Below the pieces are notes generated by a model. It was not told where the DNA came from. It did not search any database and saw only the letters and a list, made by a program, of their open reading frames with translations. Position numbers and translations under genes: made by a program. Positions 29,451-64,000 of a DNA stretch of 64,000 nucleotides are shown here, one piece after another. Origin of the DNA: Nitrospirota bacterium. GTDB taxonomy: Bacteria > Nitrospirota > UBA9217. The stretch lies in NCBI GenBank assembly GCA_963818475.1, contig CAWFSF010000001.1:32001-96000 (forward strand), in the 5' to 3' direction. Positions within the stretch are counted from its first letter, which is position 1. The number at the start of each line of letters is the position of its first letter.

Positions 29451-30459
<1,009 letters not shown>

Positions 30460-30591
30460 ACGATTCCAAGGACAAGTACCAAATACTAAGTCCAGGACCA
30501 AGCGTCAATTTCAAACGTTTCGAACATTGAAATTTGAACTTGATGTATCTGAGATTTGTGCTTTGGATTTGGATTTTCACCAAAGGTGACT

Positions 30592-31788
30592 ATGGATAAA
30601 AAGACCATCGAGAAGGTCGACCTGAAGGGCAAGCGGGTCTTCATCCGCGCTGACTTCAACGTGCCCTTCGACGAGAACGGCAACATCACCGACGACGGCA
30701 GGATCCGCTCCACGCTCCCGACGATCAATTACGCCCTCGACGCCGGCGCCAAGGTGATCCTCGCGTCGCACCTCGGCCGACCCAAGGGCAAACCGAACCC
30801 GAAGTACAGCCTGGCTCCGGTGGCGCTGCGGCTGAACCGGCTCCTGAACAAAGAAGTGAAGTTCGCCAAGGACTGCATCGGCCCTGATGTGGAGCATCTG
30901 GTCCAGGGCATGCGGCCCGGCGATGTCCTGCTGCTCGAGAACCTCCGGTTCCATGCAGAGGAAGAGAAGAACGACGAGGGCTTTTCCAAGGCCCTTGCCG
31001 CGTTCACCGATGTGTACGTGAACGACGCTTTCGGCACGGCCCACCGCGCCCATGCCTCCACCTACGGCATCACCAAGCACGTGAAGCAATCCGTGGCCGG
31101 GTTCCTGATGAAGAAGGAGATCGACTATCTCCAGAAGACCGTGGCGAATCCGGTACGGCCCTTCGTGGCGATCCTCGGCGGGGCCAAGGTCTCGGGCAAG
31201 ATCGGCGTGATCGAGAACCTCCAGAACAAGGTGCGACAAGATCATCGTCGGCGGCGCCATGGCCTTCACCTTCATCAAGGCGCGCGGCCAGGAAGTGGGC
31301 AATTCGCTCGTCGAACCGGAAATGCTCGAGATGGCCGCAGCGGATCCGCAAGAGCGCTCCGCGAAAGCAACGTCAAATTCTACCTGCCCGTCGATTTCGT
31401 CGTTGCCGAGAACATGAACGACGGCGCGACGACCAAGATCGTGACGTCCCAGGAGATCCCGAAGGGCTGGGTCGGGCTCGACATCGGCCCGGCAACGACC
31501 CGTCTCTTCGCAGAAGCGATCCAGGACGCCAAGACCATCATCTGGAACGGCCCCATGGGCATGTTCGAGAAGGACGCCTATTCGCGCGGCACCTTCGCCA
31601 TCGCGCGCTCGGTGGCAGACGCCTACGCGACCACCATCGTGGGCGGCGGCGATACGGACGTGGCCGTGCACAAGGCGGGCGTCTCCGACAGCATCACCTT
31701 CATCTCCACCGGCGGCGGCGCTTCGCTGGAGCTGCTCGAAGGCAAGGAACTCCCGGGACTTGCAGCGCTGACGGATGACAAGGAGTAG
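30592..31788 (+). CDS. pgk: Phosphoglycerate kinase (compensating indels mid-gene)
   Basis: [47 protein letters not shown]. Confidence 0.97.
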
Positions 31789-31903
31789 AACAAATACTCT
31801 CGGACACTGAAGGACACTGATTGTCTATGATGGACACCAATAGGAACACCGAAAAATTTCATCATACTAAATCAGTGTGAATCAGTGTCAAAAAGGAATT
31901 TCT

Positions 31904-34724: not shown

Positions 34725-34824
34725 GGACACGGATTTACACGGAAGGACCGGATAAGGCTTTAACCCTTAAAATATTCTGACCCATTACCTTTTTTATCCG
34801 CCTTTTCCGTGCACATCCGTGTCC
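34725..34824. repeat. Empty ACACGGAT-type inverted-repeat element
   Basis: ggacacggatttacacggaaggaccggataa ... ttatccgccttttccgtgcacatccgtgtcc. Confidence 0.85.
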
Positions 34825-46138: not shown

Positions 46139-46146
46139 AATCATTT

Positions 46147-46234
46147 GGACACGGATAACATCTGAAAAAGCGGATTTAGACTTACGTTCATGCAGTTCCG
46201 GCTTAATCCGATTTTTTCGTGCAAATCCGTGTCC
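46147..46234. repeat. Empty ACACGGAT-type inverted-repeat element between hemE and hemH
   Basis: ggacacggataacatctgaaaaagcggatt ... aatccgattttttcgtgcaaatccgtgtcc. Confidence 0.85.
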
Positions 46235-46247
46235 CATTTGCATTTCT

Positions 46248-47144
46248 ATGTCGAATCACACGGCAATCATACTCATCGCCCTGGGCGGGCCGCGATCGCT
46301 CGATGAGGTCGGCCCCTTCATGGCCGCCTTCATGGGCCGGCCGGCCCCTCCTCCTGTTGTTGCGGCAGTGATCGAACGCTACAAACTGATCGGCGGCAAG
46401 TCCCCGCTGCCCGAGCTCGTTCAAGCGCAGGCCCATGCCCTGGAAAAAGAACTGGGCAGCGGCTTTCGCGCCTATGAGGGTTTCCGGTACTCGGAACCGA
46501 CCGTTGCCGAATCATTTGATAAGGCCATCACTGACGGCGCACGGCGCGTGATCGCCCTTTCCATGTCCCCCTTCTCGACCGAGGTTACGACCGGCGCGTA
46601 TAAAAGCGCCTGTGACGGATTGGGAAGCGGCGAGACCTGCCCCCTCTTCATCCCCAGCTGGCATGACAATCCCCTCTTCATCGATGCCTGGGTTGAAAAG
46701 GTCGCCGCCGGCCTCGCACTGTTCCCGGCAGCATTACGCGATTCCGTTGTCGTCATCTTCACCAGCCACAGTATCCCTGTCCGCTATATCACTGCCGGAG
46801 ATCCCTATAAGAAGCAGATCGAGGAAACGGTCGGGCTGGTCGCTGCAAAAGCGGGAATACGGGAATGGCGCATTGCATGGCAGAGCAAGGGAGCGCGCGC
46901 GACCGAGCCCTGGATCGAGCCCGAGGTGGAGCCGACCCTGGACAAACTCGCCCAGGAAGGCCACAAAGCGGTCCTTGAAGTTCCGATCGGCTTCACCTGC
47001 GATCACATGGAGACCCTGTACGATATCGACATCGTGCACCGTGCGCACGCGAAAAAGCTGGGGATCGAGTTCGAGCGGGCCGAATCGCTGAACACTTCGC
47101 CGCTCTTTATCAAAGCACTGGCGGATGTAGTGAAAACCCTTTAA
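46248..47144 (+). CDS. hemH: Ferrochelatase
   Basis: RYKLIGGKSPL, FTSHSIP, GDPY, WQS, PIGFTCDHMETLYDID, SLNTSPLFI. Confidence 0.95.
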   Translation: MSNHTAIILIALGGPRSLDEVGPFMAAFMGRPAPPPVVAAVIERYKLIGGKSPLPELVQAQAHALEKELGSGFRAYEGFRYSEPTVAESFDKAITDGARRVIALSMSPFSTEVTTGAYKSACDGLGSGETCPLFIPSWHDNPLFIDAWVEKVAAGLALFPAALRDSVVVIFTSHSIPVRYITAGDPYKKQIEETVGLVAAKAGIREWRIAWQSKGARATEPWIEPEVEPTLDKLAQEGHKAVLEVPIGFTCDHMETLYDIDIVHRAHAKKLGIEFERAESLNTSPLFIKALADVVKTL

Positions 47145-47148
47145 TCTT

Positions 47149-47627
47149 TTGGACACGGATTCACACGGAAGAGGCGGATTTGAATCAAGGGCTTCTCGAT
47201 CATAGTTCAAACGACCTTACTGAGCAGGTATTAAAAGCCTTCTATAAGGTATACAATACTCTCGGGTATGGTTTTCTAGAAAAAGTTTATGTCAATGCGT
47301 TAATCTTAGAACTTAAGAAAATGTCTATTAATGTAGCGCCCCAGCACCCTATTCAGGTCCATTATGATGGCAGCCTTGTTGGGGAATACTACGCCGACCT
47401 CCTGATAAAGGATTGCATCATCGTAGAAGTTAAGGCCACGAAATCTCTCGCATTCGAGAACGAAGCCCAGCTCTTGAATTATCTAAAAGCTACGAACCTC
47501 GAAGTTGGATTGCTGCTGAACTTTGGGCCAAAACCAGAAGTAAGGCGCAAACTGTTTGACAACAACAAGAAATAGAGCTTTGCTTTTTAAATTTGTATCC
47601 GATTTTTCCGTGTTAATCCGTGTCCAA
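47149..47627 (+). mobile_element. Filled ACACGGAT-type inverted-repeat element carrying the GxxExxY gene
   Basis: 31-bp arms 47149-47179 and 47597-47627 match at 27 of 31 positions as inverted repeats; AT-richer interior. Confidence 0.75.
47180..47575 (+). CDS. GxxExxY protein (PD-(D/E)XK nuclease superfamily)
   Basis: LGYGFLEKVY, YYADLLI..IIVEVKA, AQLLNYLKAT, GLLLNFG; TTG start. Confidence 0.93.
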   Translation: MNQGLLDHSSNDLTEQVLKAFYKVYNTLGYGFLEKVYVNALILELKKMSINVAPQHPIQVHYDGSLVGEYYADLLIKDCIIVEVKATKSLAFENEAQLLNYLKATNLEVGLLLNFGPKPEVRRKLFDNNKK

Positions 47628-47643
47628 CAAAGGGGTTGAACTC

Positions 47644-49073
47644 ATGCCAAAAATAATCATCATAGGCGGCGGCATCGCCGGTCTGGCGGCTGCGGTCCAC
47701 TTGAAGGCCGGGGCCAAGGCCTACGACAAGACCGTCGAGGTGCTGCTGCTCGAGAAGAACAACAGGATCGGCGGCAAGATCCTGACCGAAAAGATCGGCA
47801 ACTACCTCGTCGAAGGCGGGCCCGACAGCTTCCTGCCGGAAAAGGTCTGGAGCGTCAACCTTGCGCAGGCACCTCGGCCTGGAACCGGAGATGCTGCCGT
47901 CGAACGACGAGTTCAAGGGGACCTTCATCTATTCTCGGAATAAGCTCCACTCCCTGCCCGAAGGCGTGATGCTCATGGTGCCGACCATGTTCATGCCCAT
48001 GGCGAAATCGAGCCTCATCTCCTGGCCCGGCAAGATGCGCATGGGCATGGAGATCTTCATGCCGAAGCGCAGGAACACGGATGACGAAAGCCTGGCGTCC
48101 TTTGTCACGCGCCGCCTCGGACGGGAATGCCTGGAGAAGATCGCCGAGCCCCTCGTTGCCGGCATCCACACGTCGAACCCCGACAACATGAGCGTGCTCG
48201 CCACGTTCCCGCGCTTTGTCCAGATGGAGCAGAAGAGCGGCAGCCTGATCCACGGCATGATCGCCGCCATGAAGAGCCGTCCCCACGCAACGCTCAGCGG
48301 CCCTCCTCCCAAACCGGGCTCGACGAAGATGACCTATTTCATGAGCTTCAAGAACGGCATGCAGACCCTGTCGCAGGCATGCGCCGAATACATCGGCAGG
48401 GACTCGATCAGGCTCGGGCGCCGGGGTCAAGGCTGTTGAACCGAAGGGAAAAGGCTATACCGTGGTCCTCGAGAACGGCGAGAAGCTCTGGATGCCGATT
48501 ATGTCATGATCGGCGCTGCTGCCTATGATGCTGCGGAAATGGTCAAGGGCTTTGATGCGGACCTTGCCGGGCAGATGAACAAGATCGAATGGTCGTCATC
48601 AGCCACGGTCACGGTCGCATTCAAAAAAGAGGACGTGAAGGTCCCGCTCAAAGGCTTCGGCTTCATCGTCCCCCGCGTCGAAGGCAGAAGGATCAATGCC
48701 TCCACCTACAGCTCCATCAAATGGTCGTACCGCGCACCGGACGATATGGTCACGCTCCGCGTTTTCGTCGGCGGCGGACATCACGAGGAGCTGGTCCATG
48801 AGCTTGATGATGCCGGGATGACCAGGATGGTGCTCGAAGAGCTCGACGTCATCCTCGGCATCAAGGCGAATGCGCAGTTCTCGAAGGTCTACCGGTGGAA
48901 CAAAGGCATGCCCAAGTACACCGTGGGCCACCTCGACCGGATCGCAGCTGCTCGACCGCGTGCTTGCGAAGCATGCCGGGCTGCACCTGATCGGCTGCTC
49001 CTACAAGGGCATCGGCATCGGCGACTGCGTGCACGAGGCACAGATCGCTGCGGAGAGGATACTGAAGAGCTGA
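47644..49073 (+). CDS. hemY: HemY-type protoporphyrinogen/coproporphyrinogen oxidase (indels)
   Basis: IIGGGIAGLAAA, RIGGKI, EGGPDSF, DESLASFVTRRLG, GFGFIVPR, MPKYTVGH, GCSYKGIGIGDCV. Confidence 0.92.
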
Positions 49074-49078
49074 CGCGC

Positions 49079-49471
49079 ATGAACCACTTCATGGAAGTAA
49101 AGATCTACTACGAGGACACGGACTGCGGGGGCGTCGTCTACTACGCCAACTACCTCAAGTACATGGAGCGTGCCCGGACTGAATACCTTGCCAGCCGCGG
49201 CTTCGCGGTCAAAAAACTGATGGACGAGGGCACGATCTTCATGGTGCTTCGCGCCGAGATCGACTACAAATCTCCTGCGCGGTACGGCGATACGATCGTG
49301 ATCGAAACCTGGGTGCGCGATGTGACCAGGGCGACCATGGTCTTCGAACACATCATGAAACACAAGGAAACAGGACGCGTGTTCGTGCAGTGCATGGCAA
49401 AAGCCGTGTTCGTGGACGCCAGCGCCAAACCGAAGCGCCTGTCTGCCGAGTTCGTGGAAAAAGTAAAGTGA
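49079..49471 (+). CDS. YbgC/FadM family acyl-CoA thioesterase
   Basis: KIYYEDTDCGGVVYYANYLKYMERARTE. Confidence 0.9.
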   Translation: MNHFMEVKIYYEDTDCGGVVYYANYLKYMERARTEYLASRGFAVKKLMDEGTIFMVLRAEIDYKSPARYGDTIVIETWVRDVTRATMVFEHIMKHKETGRVFVQCMAKAVFVDASAKPKRLSAEFVEKVK

Positions 49472-50214: not shown

Positions 50215-50320
50215 AATGCAAAATGCAAAGTGCAAATTTCAAATTGCAAGAATTGAAGTATAGCCTTAGTGTTTCGTTTTCTAAAATTTGCATTTTGCAT
50301 TTTGCATTTTGCACTTTGCA
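50215..50320. repeat. Heptamer-period inverted repeat (AATGCAA / TTTGCAT) between convergent genes
   Basis: aatgcaa aatgcaa agtgcaa atttcaa attgcaa ... tttgcat tttgcat tttgcat tttgcac tttgcag. Confidence 0.85.
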
Positions 50321-53470: not shown

Positions 53471-55870
53471 ATGGATACCGTAGAAAAAATAGAACTGAGC
53501 ATCCTGAGCGAGATCAGCAAGATCTCGAACTCCGGCGCCAACCTTTCGCAAAAGCTGCACCGCATCGTCGAAGTGGTAGCGCGGGGCATGGGCAGGGAAG
53601 GCGCTTCGGTCTTCCTCATCGACAGCTCCGGCAAGAACGTTACCCTTGCTGCAGCGATCGGCCTGAACCAGGAGACGGTCGGCAAGCTGAGCTTTCCGGT
53701 CGGCATGGGTATCGCCGGGTGGGTGGCCGAGCAGAAGGTGCCGCTCGCGCTGGAGGACCCCTATTCGGACCCGCGGTTCCAGTACGTCCCTGAATCAGGC
53801 ATTGGACAGTTCAAATCGCTGGTGGCCGCCCCGATCCAGGACGAAGACCGCTGTCTTGGCGTTATCTTCGTCCTGTCGTCCTCGGTCTGGAATGCAACGT
53901 CGTCCGATATCATGCTGCTCACAACCACGGCGAACCAGCTCAGCGGGGTCATCAGAAACGCCCAGCTCTTCCAGAGCATCCAGGAGCGCCTTTCCGAACT
54001 GTCCACCATCTACGAGATCGGCAAAGCGCTCACCTCCACGCTCGATGTAGACCAGCTCCTGTCGCTGATCGCCAAGAACAGCACCCAGGCGCTCCACGCA
54101 AAAAGCTGCGCCATCAGGCTGCTGAACCGGCCCGGGAAAAACGTTCTCTATACGACGCTCTCGTCAGGCCCTGCCGATAACGCGGTCAGGGATATGGATA
54201 CCCGGCTCGGAGATCTGGTGACCGCACAGATCCTTCGGGAGCGGAAACCGCTGCTCGTGAAGGACGTGACGCTGGAGCCCCTCTTCCACGACGTGGCCGG
54301 CCTGACTGTCGGATCTCTCATCGGCGTTCAGCTCATCTTTCACGATTCGGTGATCGGGACCATCACGCTCTACGACAAGCAGGAAGGCCAGCCGTTCGAC
54401 GATGACGACCTTCAGTTCCTGACGACAATCGCAAGCAGCGCTGCCGTGGCAGTCGAGAACGCGGTCATGTACGAGCGAATGGAGGATTATGCTACCGAGG
54501 CGCGGCGCCGCGCCGAGGAGCTCTCGATCCTCTACGACATCGGCACGGCCATGAGCACGACCCTGAACCTCGACCGCCTGCTCCGGATCATCATGACGGC
54601 GGCGACCATGGGCGGCAGCGGACTCGGCTTTAACCGGGCCATCCTGCTCCTGACCAACGAGCGTACGAACACGCTTCAGGGCATGATGGGAGTCGGCCCC
54701 ACCAGCTGGGAAGAGGCCGGGCGCGCATGGGGCGAGGTCGTCGGCAAGCATAAGAGCCTGCTGGAATGGATCCAGACCGGCGAGCTGTTCAACAATCGCG
54801 ATTCCGAGCTGAACACACTTGCGCGCGGCATCCGTGTCCAGCTGACACCCGGGGACAGCGTGCTGGCGCTCACGGTCTTGAACAAGCAGCCCTACAATAT
54901 CGTGGACGCGCCCACGAGCCACATCGTGAACAAGGAACTGCGGGAGCGGCTGAGGGTCCAGAGCTTCGCAACGGTCCCCCTGATCGCCAAGGACCGGGTC
55001 ATCGGCGTCATCTATGTGGACAACATGTTTAACGAGCGGCCGATCACGGACAACGATATCCGCTTCCTGACCATGTTCGCCCATCAGTCAGCTCTAGCCA
55101 TCGAGAATGCGATCATCCACTCGAACCTGGAAACGCTGAACAAGGATCTGCGCTCCATGCATGAACAGCTGGTCCAATCCGAGAAAATGGCCGCCCTCGG
55201 CGCAATGATGGCCGAGATCACCCACGAGATCAGGAATCCCCTGGTCTCGATCGGCGGTTTCACCCGCCGTCTGGCGAAGAAGATCCAGGACCCTGAGGAA
55301 AAAAAGTACATCGATATCATTATGAGCGAGGTGACGCGGCTTGAGGCGATCATCCATGATAACCTTTCTTACATCAAGGAAATGTCCCCTCATCTCAACG
55401 AAGTGGACCTGAACAACCTGGTCGGCGACACGCTGATGCTGTACGAGGACGAACTCGTCCAGCGCGGCATCAAGCTCGAAAGGACGCTCTCACCTTCGCA
55501 TCCGGTCCTCATGCTCGACGCACAGCAGATCAAACAGGCGCTCATCAATATCATCAAGAACGCCATTGAGGCAATGACGAGCGGCGGAGTGCTCAGTATT
55601 ACGACCAGCGACCTTCCTGAAACGCAAGAGGCCGCGCTTGAGATCAGCGACACCGGCCCGGGCATCCCGGAAAAGGTCCGGAATAACATCTTTAATCCAT
55701 ATTATACGACCAAAACGCTCGGCACGGGACTGGGACTGTCGATCACGAACAGGATCATCAAATCGCACCATGGACGGATCGAGGTCAGGAACCGGGAGAG
55801 CGGCGGCGCAGCGTTCACAATCCGGCTGCCGTACCGTCCGAACGAAGAGCTCCATCGCCAGCACGGATAA
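53471..55870 (+). CDS. Cytoplasmic 3xGAF sensor histidine kinase
   Basis: GIAGWVAE, AAVAVENA, SALAIENA, SEKMAALG..EITHEIRNPL, DTGPGI, GTGLGL. Confidence 0.93.
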   Translation: MDTVEKIELSILSEISKISNSGANLSQKLHRIVEVVARGMGREGASVFLIDSSGKNVTLAAAIGLNQETVGKLSFPVGMGIAGWVAEQKVPLALEDPYSDPRFQYVPESGIGQFKSLVAAPIQDEDRCLGVIFVLSSSVWNATSSDIMLLTTTANQLSGVIRNAQLFQSIQERLSELSTIYEIGKALTSTLDVDQLLSLIAKNSTQALHAKSCAIRLLNRPGKNVLYTTLSSGPADNAVRDMDTRLGDLVTAQILRERKPLLVKDVTLEPLFHDVAGLTVGSLIGVQLIFHDSVIGTITLYDKQEGQPFDDDDLQFLTTIASSAAVAVENAVMYERMEDYATEARRRAEELSILYDIGTAMSTTLNLDRLLRIIMTAATMGGSGLGFNRAILLLTNERTNTLQGMMGVGPTSWEEAGRAWGEVVGKHKSLLEWIQTGELFNNRDSELNTLARGIRVQLTPGDSVLALTVLNKQPYNIVDAPTSHIVNKELRERLRVQSFATVPLIAKDRVIGVIYVDNMFNERPITDNDIRFLTMFAHQSALAIENAIIHSNLETLNKDLRSMHEQLVQSEKMAALGAMMAEITHEIRNPLVSIGGFTRRLAKKIQDPEEKKYIDIIMSEVTRLEAIIHDNLSYIKEMSPHLNEVDLNNLVGDTLMLYEDELVQRGIKLERTLSPSHPVLMLDAQQIKQALINIIKNAIEAMTSGGVLSITTSDLPETQEAALEISDTGPGIPEKVRNNIFNPYYTTKTLGTGLGLSITNRIIKSHHGRIEVRNRESGGAAFTIRLPYRPNEELHRQHG

Positions 55871-63603: not shown

Positions 63604-63746
63604 CGACACCACTCTCCGATCCTACAGTAAAAATTGCATTGCACGGGATGGCCAAAGCGCTGATCTGTTGGCCAACCGCAAACACGCCGGTTATAGTATC
63701 ATTTTTATCGTCATAAATTCAAGAGAATTAATAAACCTAAAAAAAG

Positions 63747-63910
63747 CATTTGGACACGGATAAACACGGATAAGAGCCGGATACTGCGAATTATTTATTC
63801 TATATGTGGTTCACCCAATAGATGAACGCTTTGCTTTAGAATTTATCCGTGTCGCTTAGAAGCGCCTACTTCTGGTAATCAGATGTTTCCGATTCTTCCG
63901 TGTCCAAATG
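63747..63910. repeat. Empty ACACGGAT-type inverted-repeat element upstream of secA
   Basis: catttggacacggataaacacggataagagccggat ... tccgtgtccaaatg (14-bp perfect terminal IR). Confidence 0.85.
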
Positions 63911-64000
63911 AAGTTTTTAGGATAAAGGAAGGCAGCACAAGTGACCATCCGGACAGAGCAGGACGTGAGGAGATACGGCATATTAGGGATGCAACAAAAA

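Follow-up and report, generated by a model that had tools for sequence, protein, structure and literature searches.

A GxxExxY nuclease-fold gene cassette with inverted unit-array arms at a hemH junction in Nitrospirota, and its gene-less relatives

Repeat-specific enzymes whose genes are flanked by their own repeat are familiar from the repetitive extragenic palindrome (REP)/RAYT systems. For the GIY-YIG nuclease Ssn, the portion of the report drawn on here describes a gene that has its own hairpin repeat on either side in 42% of homologs, carriage of the gene by 81% of genomes with more than 200 repeats, cleavage of single-stranded DNA (ssDNA) at the repeat and modulation of transformation (Chenal et al. 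2025, PMC11893778). The Coxiella 23S rRNA intervening sequence (IVS), as far as the consulted sections of its description go, has a 5' arm of three tandem GACAGAT heptamers, arms that form a 28-bp stem in which RNase III cuts in vitro, and an internal, decaying open reading frame (ORF) of the S23p family, PF05635 (PMC4990558). Here we describe a cassette at positions 47149-47627 of a 64,000-nt stretch of a Nitrospirota genome (GCA_963818475.1, contig CAWFSF010000001.1, positions 32,001 to 96,000; the whole stretch is called the window), in which a GxxExxY gene lies between inverted arms in a hem operon, directly behind hemH. We read this block between hemH and a HemY-type gene tentatively, at a probability of about 40%, as a member of a family of small, selfish cassettes that spans phyla, each with a gene whose nuclease product would recognise its own unit arrays.

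The arms of the focal cassette, at 47149-47179 and 47597-47627 on the plus strand, form a 31-nt inverted repeat with 27 of 31 positions complementary and 417 nt between them. The four mismatches are C.T, G.T, G.T and G.A, two of them G-U compatible on the sense strand, exactly as the preliminary description had stated. By inverted-repeat search and the unit logo of related loci, the left arm consists of three inward-facing units, GGACACGGAT, TCACACGGAA and GAGGCGGAT. It also holds the Shine-Dalgarno-like GGAAGAGG, immediately ahead of the TTG that starts a 131-aa ORF at 47180-47575 (plus strand), and the word GCTTTGCTTT follows the ORF at 47577-47586. Complementarity extends outward beyond the 31-nt repeat, where the half-stem AACCCTTT (47135-47142), lying over the final hemH codons and stop, is complementary to AAAGGGGTT (47629-47637), which lies over the Shine-Dalgarno region of the HemY-type gene (ATG at 47644). 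The order along the operon is a URO-D gene, the ferrochelatase gene hemH, the cassette and a flavin amine-oxidase gene of HemY type. We confirm that the left arm begins 4 nt past the hemH TAA and that the insert is AT-richer than its surroundings, with a GC content of 0.418 vs 0.60 for the hem genes.

The 131-aa ORF matches PF13366 (3.1e-40, 137.6 bits; curated cut-off 22) and TIGR04256 (8.6e-39, 132.5 bits; curated cut-off 35), and is not a member of S23p (PF05635), of the Y1 HUH family PF01797 or of GIY-YIG. The motif G31-x-x-E34-x-x-Y37 is intact in the focal protein, as are D73, E83-x-K85 and Q97. Columns read from alignments of 7 and of 51 sequences show that G31, E34, Y37, E83, K85 and Q97 are invariant across the 51 and that D73 is present in at least 90% of rows. 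An AlphaFold (AF2) model predicts a minimal PD-(D/E)XK core with a mean predicted local distance difference test score (pLDDT) of 89.6, which Foldseek matches best to Cas4 SSO0001 (4ic1), to Hjc, an archaeal Holliday-junction resolvase (2wiw, 2wcw), and to lambda exonuclease, at TM-scores of 0.4-0.57. A search of PDB sequences with a profile of the 7 sequences gave no meaningful relative, the best match being ribosomal protein L7A at E = 0.5. Together the alignments and the model show the focal protein to be a predicted minimal PD-(D/E)XK nuclease with its catalytic residues intact, and the superfamily membership given as known in the preliminary description agrees with both family models and with the fold matches. 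None of 50,697 phage records and 7 of 72,556 plasmids match the focal protein, indicating that carriage by phage or plasmid is not its usual state. A 2012 survey of the superfamily, in the part used here, gives PDDEXK_3 as a family of function not known with multiple transfers (PMC3424549).

The arms of related loci reveal what they are built of. A scan of a genome collection gave 572 confirmed relatives of the focal protein; the best 80 loci, 53-66% identical, were kept, and 77 of them have both flanks. Among these best 80 of 572, the labels of the metagenome-assembled genomes (MAGs) include Nitrospirota, Chloroflexota, Bacteroidota, Planctomycetota, Acidobacteriota, Ignavibacteriota, Thermodesulfobacteriota and others, more than 10 phyla. 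Two of the loci belong to cultured strains, L102 to Draconibacterium orientale DSM 25947 and L113 to Flavobacterium tiangeerense. Arms of the GRACRCNGAT class stand at almost all of the 77 two-flank loci, with at least two units per side in 52 and at least one per side in 66, and 403 units from related loci give the logo (G/A)A-C-R-C-N-G-A-T. Neighbouring units lie 9 nt apart in 55 cases and 10 nt apart in 94, so that the strict 9-bp period of the preliminary description gives way to a spacing of 9-10 nt. The motif faces inward: upstream, 200 units are forward and 75 reverse; downstream, 212 are reverse and 91 forward. Likewise, relatives of the paralog Gx1, taken from metagenome contigs at 54-84% identity, have both flanks at 55 loci, and 51 of these carry arms of CAC[GA]GAG-type units with an 8-9-nt period; at lower identity the unit variants CGCRGAG, CACGAAG and CAGTGAG appear. 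The division of the two arm types between the relatives of the two proteins shows that arm class follows protein subfamily. Each arm is an inward-facing array of three to four 9-10-nt units with the core (G/A)AC-R-C-N-GAT, not a plain stem; it is well supported that the arms repeat a sequence unit specific to the protein subfamily and are not simply a stem.

In the same set of loci, near-identical GxxExxY proteins occur under different phylum labels, namely L085 and L112 (Thermodesulfobacteriota vs Planctomycetota) and L058 and L064 (Desulfobacteraceae vs Balneolales). Such near-identity across phyla reflects either very recent transfer or binning error.

The pairing of the arms bears on an alternative in which they act mainly as RNA. 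Here the arms would form a long stem in the transcript, RNase III would cut it and free the cassette RNA without polarity on the downstream gene, and DNA mobility and nuclease specificity would be secondary. An mRNA intervening sequence of this kind was the second reading of the preliminary description, and its architectural part stands, in that the Coxiella 23S IVS is built alike in the sections of its report used here (PMC4990558) and the arms do pair in the predicted fold. The minimum-free-energy (MFE) RNA fold of the focal cassette pairs the arms over 13+10+5 bp plus the outer 8 bp (47135-47142 with 47629-47637), with z = -4.2, and 0 of 100 shuffles fold as well. No sigma-70-like site was found in or near the focal cassette, the nearest lying upstream of hemE, so the cassette shows no promoter-like site of its own. 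Furthermore, cassettes are oriented with operons. The focal gene has the orientation of its operon, and a crude frame picker places both flanking frames on the cassette strand at 12 of the 16 cassettes of this genome. It calls one flank discordant at the remaining four, but at two of these (Gx6 and Gx9) the flanks, read in the cassette orientation, have a frame that terminates upstream and one that starts with ATG downstream. Among 74 cross-phylum loci, where few flanks were callable, the upstream frame is on the same strand in 12 and the opposite in 3, and the downstream frame in 19 and 2, respectively. The start codon or the Shine-Dalgarno stretch of the cassette gene often lies in the left arm.

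Against this RNA reading, the 606 arm mismatches in 62 cassettes comprise 120 of G-U type on the sense strand, 121 of G-U type on the antisense strand and 365 transversions, so there is no RNA-wobble bias. Left and right arms agree at variable core positions at 0.743 in register and 0.761 out of register, units within one arm at 0.784 and units of different loci at 0.424. For the inter-unit spacers the corresponding values are only 0.469 in register, then 0.387, 0.356 and 0.360. Pairing is thus conserved no better in register than out of it, and the covariation specific to register that a selected stem would leave is missing from these arms. The units of one locus are homogenised to the same variant whatever their pairing partner, and complementarity is weak outside the core, which fits sequence-specific site arrays better than a selected long perfect helix. 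In a cross-pairing control, arms from different loci are of the same class and pair with one another. A stem, moreover, does not need a unit sequence conserved across phyla, and the target-site duplications (TSDs) of the gene-less copies described below are left unexplained by it. Rfam (E up to 1, positions 30000-64000) returned no family, only sub-threshold miRNA-like matches on hairpins. We therefore hold it quite improbable that the arms are chiefly an RNA device. The purine-first orientation of the arms was also considered as a strand signal and was dropped as a trivial property of inverted repeats.

We surveyed the whole source genome (4.66 Mb in 7 contigs, 91% complete) for related genes and arms. 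PF13366 gives 13 matches at 11 loci, of which 6 are intact, 1 has an in-frame TGA, 2 are split and 2 are fragments. PF05635, the four-helix-bundle family labelled '23S rRNA IVP', gives 7 matches, 5 of them above the cut-off. With flanks read by eye, inverted arrays of a short tandem unit enclose or adjoin 10 of the 11 GxxExxY loci and all 5 strong PF05635 loci. Together with the 52 of 77 cross-phylum loci and the 51 of 55 of the second subfamily, this bears out the expected enrichment of inverted repeats at GxxExxY genes. The units are CACGGAG, CGCAAAGG, CACGAAG, CGCGAAT and CGCGGAG at the GxxExxY loci, and GGTGAGT, GCAAGTA, GAAGTTT and GGATTKC at the PF05635 loci. A blind and strict census, demanding an exact 6-mer three times at 7-11-nt spacing and its reverse complement likewise repeated within 1.5 kb, found 49 pairs of inverted arrays. 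The arms are at most 130 bp apart in 35 pairs, which are gene-less hairpins, 213 bp apart in 1, and more than 600 bp apart in 7, which are neighbouring elements. The 6 pairs at 400-520 bp every one enclose a gene, GxxExxY in 5 and PF05635 in 1. Each arm class in this genome is represented by one or two gene-bearing copies and several gene-less ones.

Other cargo was seen in the same survey. PF05635 genes occupy five loci (L031-L035, e.g. G000:C6:1993527-1994049), each with its own periodic arm units, and the CGGATTK arm class of this family has at least 12 gene-less copies too. Two Y1_Tnp-like genes of ~260-290 aa, at G000:C6:80629-81414 (L036) and G000:C3:145705-146583 (L037), lie inside periodic inverted arms with the units GGAGCAAATAG/GGGTCAG and GCAAGTA, a third kind of cargo in the same cassette architecture.

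Arms of the GGACACGGAT type are found, among the gene-bearing copies of this genome, only at the cassette in the window. At no more than one mismatch, GGACACGGAT occurs 19 times in the window vs 4.3 expected, and 0 of 100 shuffles reach 19; an exact occurrence at 54830, inside a coding sequence, is probably chance. The gene-less sister elements listed in the preliminary description are all present and all intergenic. Those at 46147-46234, between hemE and hemH, and at 34725-34824, where same-genus genomes break the alignment, have GGACACGGAT ends. Sister arms at 63747-63910 belong to a high-copy element at 63736-63921 with the outer ends CCTAAAAAAAGCATTT...AAATGAAGTTTTTAGG, flanked by the 5-bp duplication ATAAA (63731-63735 and 63922-63926). 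A variant hairpin at 31802-31889 has GGACACTGA units, and sister genomes hold other arm classes at that junction. A further periodic hairpin, at 50217-50306, has TGCAAAA units and sub-threshold matches to miRNA families in Rfam.

The commonest gene-less family counts 24 copies within 4 mismatches of a 41-nt arm, near-identical over ~150-176 bp, and a looser end probe recovers 28 complete elements. Its outer ends are CCTTAAAAAAGCATTT...AAATGCCGTTTTTAGG (CC...GG), which are absent from the gene-bearing focal copy. An exact 5-bp direct repeat flanks 13 of the 22 gene-less copies with both ends defined; at least 4 of 5 TSD positions agree in 19 of the 22, and in none are they inverted. Permuting the flank partners in 5000 trials gave a mean of 1.6 exact matches and a maximum of 6, vs the 13 observed. 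The TSDs have the target consensus W-T-N-A-W, and 9 of the 22 copies lie directly against the stop codon that closes an open frame no shorter than 100 codons. The presence of 5-bp TSDs on near-identical copies indicates that these gene-less kin moved as DNA. It is thus well supported that gene-less derivatives of the focal arm class transposed as DNA in this genome, and the gene-less copies moved around it recently. The word GCTTTGCTTT behind the focal ORF recurs, at 10 of 10 positions, in the inner right part of the gene-less elements, a local score reached by 4 of 1000 shuffles. Common arms and a common GCTTTGCTTT fit an origin of the gene-less family from a cassette by gene loss. The earlier statement that no clear TSD is visible therefore holds for the gene-bearing copy and fails for the gene-less family.

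Nine of the 24 high-copy gene-less copies carry an extra 23-nt insert, CGCTTAGAAGCGCCTACTTCTGG, at a fixed place in the right arm (e.g. 63848-63870 of the window). The same insert is found in other elements as well (e.g. G000:C1:233898).

We compared the hemH junction in 12 related genomes in which hemH and the beginning of the gene behind it were both recovered. Five of them, from four genera (the source genome, G003, G009, G010 and G013), have at exactly this junction a GxxExxY cassette whose arms are of the GGACRCGGAT type; its gene is decayed in two, by a frameshift in G003 and an in-frame stop in G009. In G006 a short gene remnant remains between the arms; the junction holds gene-less hairpins from other arm classes in G004 and G016, and plain spacers of 26-118 bp in G002, G007, G008 and G017. 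The element is thus not fixed, and the junction varies among relatives between filled, decayed, gene-less and plain states. In a protein tree the focal protein groups with the same-site copy of G010 and with one other Nitrospirota MAG (SH-aLRT, an approximate likelihood-ratio support, of 91), the tree being a quick and poorly resolved version with 47 of 82 inner branches open and the stop-bearing rows L082, L084 and L095 left out. The same-site copy of G013 has an open position in it, and an independent insertion may apply there.

A comparison with environmental DNA contigs from four runs, at 85% likeness, yielded contigs of ~93-95% identity from three of them (X1, X2 and X5) that span the focal cassette, indicating that it is present in close relatives. 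Contigs joining across 47149-47627, as an empty allele or an excision product would, were not seen among the four runs, which is not evidence of absence. The same junction being filled in five genomes of four genera, with decay or loss in some, indicates that the focal copy is an old insertion. On these comparisons of sequence, inheritance accounts for at least part of the distribution of the focal copy, which is not fixed and not recent either; it is an old, presumably co-transcribed passenger of the hem operon.

Other junctions of the same operons vary in a similar manner. At the hemE-hemH junction a periodic hairpin occurs in 14 of 16 relatives, of the focal arm class in 6, of the GGGTCAGGG class in 5 and of others in 3. 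At two more junctions, same-genus genomes whose coding DNA is 85-92% identical hold hairpins of quite different arm classes. Different unit classes at one junction in genomes of one genus point to rapid turnover or repeated insertion.

Periodic hairpins lie at nearly every intra-operon junction that we examined (window positions 30455-30600, 31795-31895 and 46139-46247; loci L118-L129 and L002-L016). In G003 (L016) the ferrochelatase frame continues into the left arm and ends at a TGA within it, and in the other filled alleles hemH ends ...CTTTAA at the very edge of the element. The element may supply the last hemH codons and the stop.

We then asked which enzyme accompanies the arms. Among 151 genomes of the phylum, 23 have both arms and PF13366, 5 have arms only (1-5 matches each), 8 the gene only and 115 neither; a control with the reversed pattern gives 0-1 matches per genome. 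Within the bacterial family, the six genomes without PF13366 have 0, 0, 0, 0, 1 and 1 arm matches, and those with it have 2-53, except G017 with 0. The four genomes richest in arm matches (53, 43, 36 and 30) each have a gene at least 57% identical to the focal one. Since kin are not independent, these counts are suggestive and not a statistical test. As for conventional enzymes, the six DDE_Tnp_1 (PF01609) matches in the source genome all lie away from such arms, and two delimited insertion sequences there have unrelated ends. The nine longest of the 13 PF01797 (Y1_Tnp) matches have different flanks, with GGACACGGAT arms in none. A transposase between a long pair of the gene-less family's ends was not found in the genome either. 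The preliminary description saw no transposase; this stands insofar as the genome search found none with matching ends, with the qualification that the two Y1-like genes sit inside arms of other classes. In this 91%-complete genome, a conventional transposase with matching ends is not found rather than absent.

These searches bear directly on a second alternative, in which the hairpins would be MITE-like transposons (miniature inverted-repeat transposable elements) moved in trans by a conventional transposase, perhaps lost or unassembled, and GxxExxY would be cargo only, with a role in addiction, defence or regulation. An enzyme of DDE type, for example that of IS1380, is suggested by the 5-bp TSD, and IS1380 transposases do occur in 12 of 41 genomes of the bacterial family, most often in G101 (25), G010 (15) and G109 (7). 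However, the IS1380 model NF033539 has 0 matches in this 7-contig genome. The IS1380-rich G101 and G109 have neither arm matches nor PF13366 genes, the arm-rich G113 and G077 have no IS1380 matches, and in four relatives the most distinct inverted pairs flanking IS1380 genes bear no relation to the arms, nor do the ends of the DDE elements examined. Passive carriage also leaves unexplained that unit sequence is kept with protein subfamily across phyla and that family genomes without GxxExxY have 0-1 arm matches. We consider it somewhat unlikely.

The favoured reading, set out at the start, gives the nuclease an active part. It would recognise and cut the unit arrays of its own cassette, in the way that RAYT acts on REP and the GIY-YIG nuclease Ssn on SRM, and such recognition would maintain and spread the cassettes and their gene-less derivatives, probably through host repair or ligation functions. 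By analogy with ORF-bearing 23S rRNA IVSs, the arms may in addition pair in the operon transcript, which would probably make the insertion tolerable. That GxxExxY is the mobilising enzyme we infer; it may instead be a repeat-specific nuclease with another role, or cargo.

A bolder form makes the cassette a minimal transposon. Its sole protein, a ~130-aa PD-(D/E)XK nuclease, would read a short unit code that recurs with helical phasing in each of the two arms, with a code for each protein subfamily (CRCNGAT, CACRGAG, CGCAAAG etc.). It would excise and paste the element at W-T-N-A-W with 5-bp duplications, aided by host repair. We regard this form as improbable.

Several observations weigh against an active nuclease; of these, the varied cargo, the TSD type and the outer ends also speak for passive carriage. 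Non-nuclease PF05635 genes fill cassettes of this kind too and come with their own gene-less families, such as that with CGGATTK arms, and two long Y1-transposase-like genes also lie inside periodic arms. One cargo may thus be exchangeable for another, with the mobiliser encoded elsewhere. A 5-bp TSD at a palindromic, AT-rich target such as W-T-N-A-W is what DDE transposases typically make, and strand transfer lies outside the chemistry of a nuclease by itself. No TSD was found around gene-bearing cassettes, the focal copy included, and the outer flanks of the Gx1 subfamily are inverted arm extensions; the focal copy also lacks the CC...GG outer ends of the active gene-less family. The genomes G005, G049 and G031 have 14-18 arm matches with GxxExxY genes just 38-47% identical to the focal one. 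Joint inheritance of protein and arms is no proof of recognition, since the two are physically linked, and at 91% completeness of the genome a transposase could have escaped the search. The autonomous/non-autonomous pair proposed in the preliminary description thus survives in part: common arms and GCTTTGCTTT make one family whose gene-less members are mobile DNA, whereas the PF05635 cassettes, the missing focal TSD and outer ends and the age of the focal insertion speak against so simple a pair.

The precedent of Ssn raises a further possibility, namely that GxxExxY cuts its repeat site-specifically, e.g. as ssDNA hairpins, without transposition; it would then modulate DNA uptake, recombination or defence, and the repeats would spread otherwise. 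The published GIY-YIG case, in the portion available here, offers the model (PMC11893778), and the same genomic signatures, cognate-repeat flanks and co-occurrence across genomes, are seen with GxxExxY. On the other hand, the fold differs (PD-(D/E)XK vs GIY-YIG), decay of the cassettes follows the pattern of selfish DNA (G003 and G009 have pseudogenes, G006 a remnant), and a nuclease is missing from the four-helix-bundle cassettes. We judge such a role without transposition to be very unlikely.

Two observations concern the frames around the focal site. The HemY-type gene (47644-49471) is split over at least three frames in the assembly, with ORFs at 47620-47943, 47861-48439 and 48506-49471. 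In close relatives, environmental contigs are short of single bases at 47867, 48419, 48479 (2 nt) and 48946/48948, which suggests that the breaks may be assembly indels and not a real pseudogene. The X1 contig, from an environmental relative, has one base missing at 47392 inside the GxxExxY ORF, which would shift the frame there.

The literature searched on GxxExxY, PDDEXK_3/PF13366 and TIGR04256/TIGR02436, outside subscription journals, holds no description of an association of gene and arms, and the hairpin-armed cassette family is apparently both widespread and undescribed. GxxExxY/PDDEXK_3 is a large family with no assigned function, with 11 loci in this one genome and 572 relatives of the focal protein in the genome collection, and it is now tied to a readable DNA feature, phased unit arrays whose class follows protein subfamily. 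This yields a testable hypothesis, that each GxxExxY protein recognises its own unit, together with a ready panel of cognate protein/site pairs. If the unit-code reading is true, the family would be a natural series of small sequence-specific nucleases with predictable targets. If the nuclease mobilises the cassette, it would be a new and very small kind of transposon; if not, a counterpart of Ssn/SRM with another fold. In genome annotation, a large part of the intergenic 'palindrome' load of the lineage is accounted for by these elements.

How does the cassette family compare with described systems? With pairs of MITEs and insertion sequences of 5-bp TSD families, e.g. IS1380, it has in common a gene-less family that ends in inverted repeats, duplicates a constant 5 bp at AT-rich targets and has recently multiplied in a burst. 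It differs in that no transposase partner with matching ends was found, and in that the sole gene-bearing relatives encode a 131-aa nuclease and show no TSD. With Ssn and its NTS/SRM repeats, as described in the sections consulted, it shares a small nuclease gene between its own repeats, many repeat copies, co-occurrence across phyla and specificity that differs between homologs. Unlike Ssn, the protein belongs to another nuclease superfamily, and the repeats are inverted arrays that enclose the gene.

REP/REPIN-RAYT systems resemble it in having a single-copy gene flanked by a repeat that is scattered gene-less in the genome, one repeat class per paralog, and co-occurrence of the two. RAYT, however, is a Y1 HUH protein (PF01797), whereas the fold here is PD-(D/E)XK. 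The arms here are phased arrays of a 7-nt core vs one imperfect palindrome, the gene-less copies make 5-bp TSDs, and the Y1 genes of this genome have other flanks.

In the ORF-bearing 23S rRNA IVSs of Coxiella and Leptospira the host site is helix 25 or 45 of the 23S rRNA gene, whereas the focal cassette sits at the junction of two protein-coding genes, for ferrochelatase and the HemY-type protein. The cargo here is a PD-(D/E)XK nuclease, gene-less derivatives flanked by TSDs occur in high copy number, and wobble bias is missing from the arms. The likeness, as far as the consulted parts of the IVS reports describe it, is nonetheless extensive: an insert of 400-500 nt with one small ORF, inverted repeats at its ends that consist of tandem heptamer-scale units and make a long stem, a place inside a host transcript, a GC content below that of the host, a sporadic distribution and a decaying ORF. 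This genome, moreover, holds five PF05635 genes in cassettes of just this kind. The comparison bears on the 30-year-old question of the origin of ORF-bearing 23S rRNA IVSs, which would then be members of a broader class of hairpin cassettes that also colonises operon junctions.

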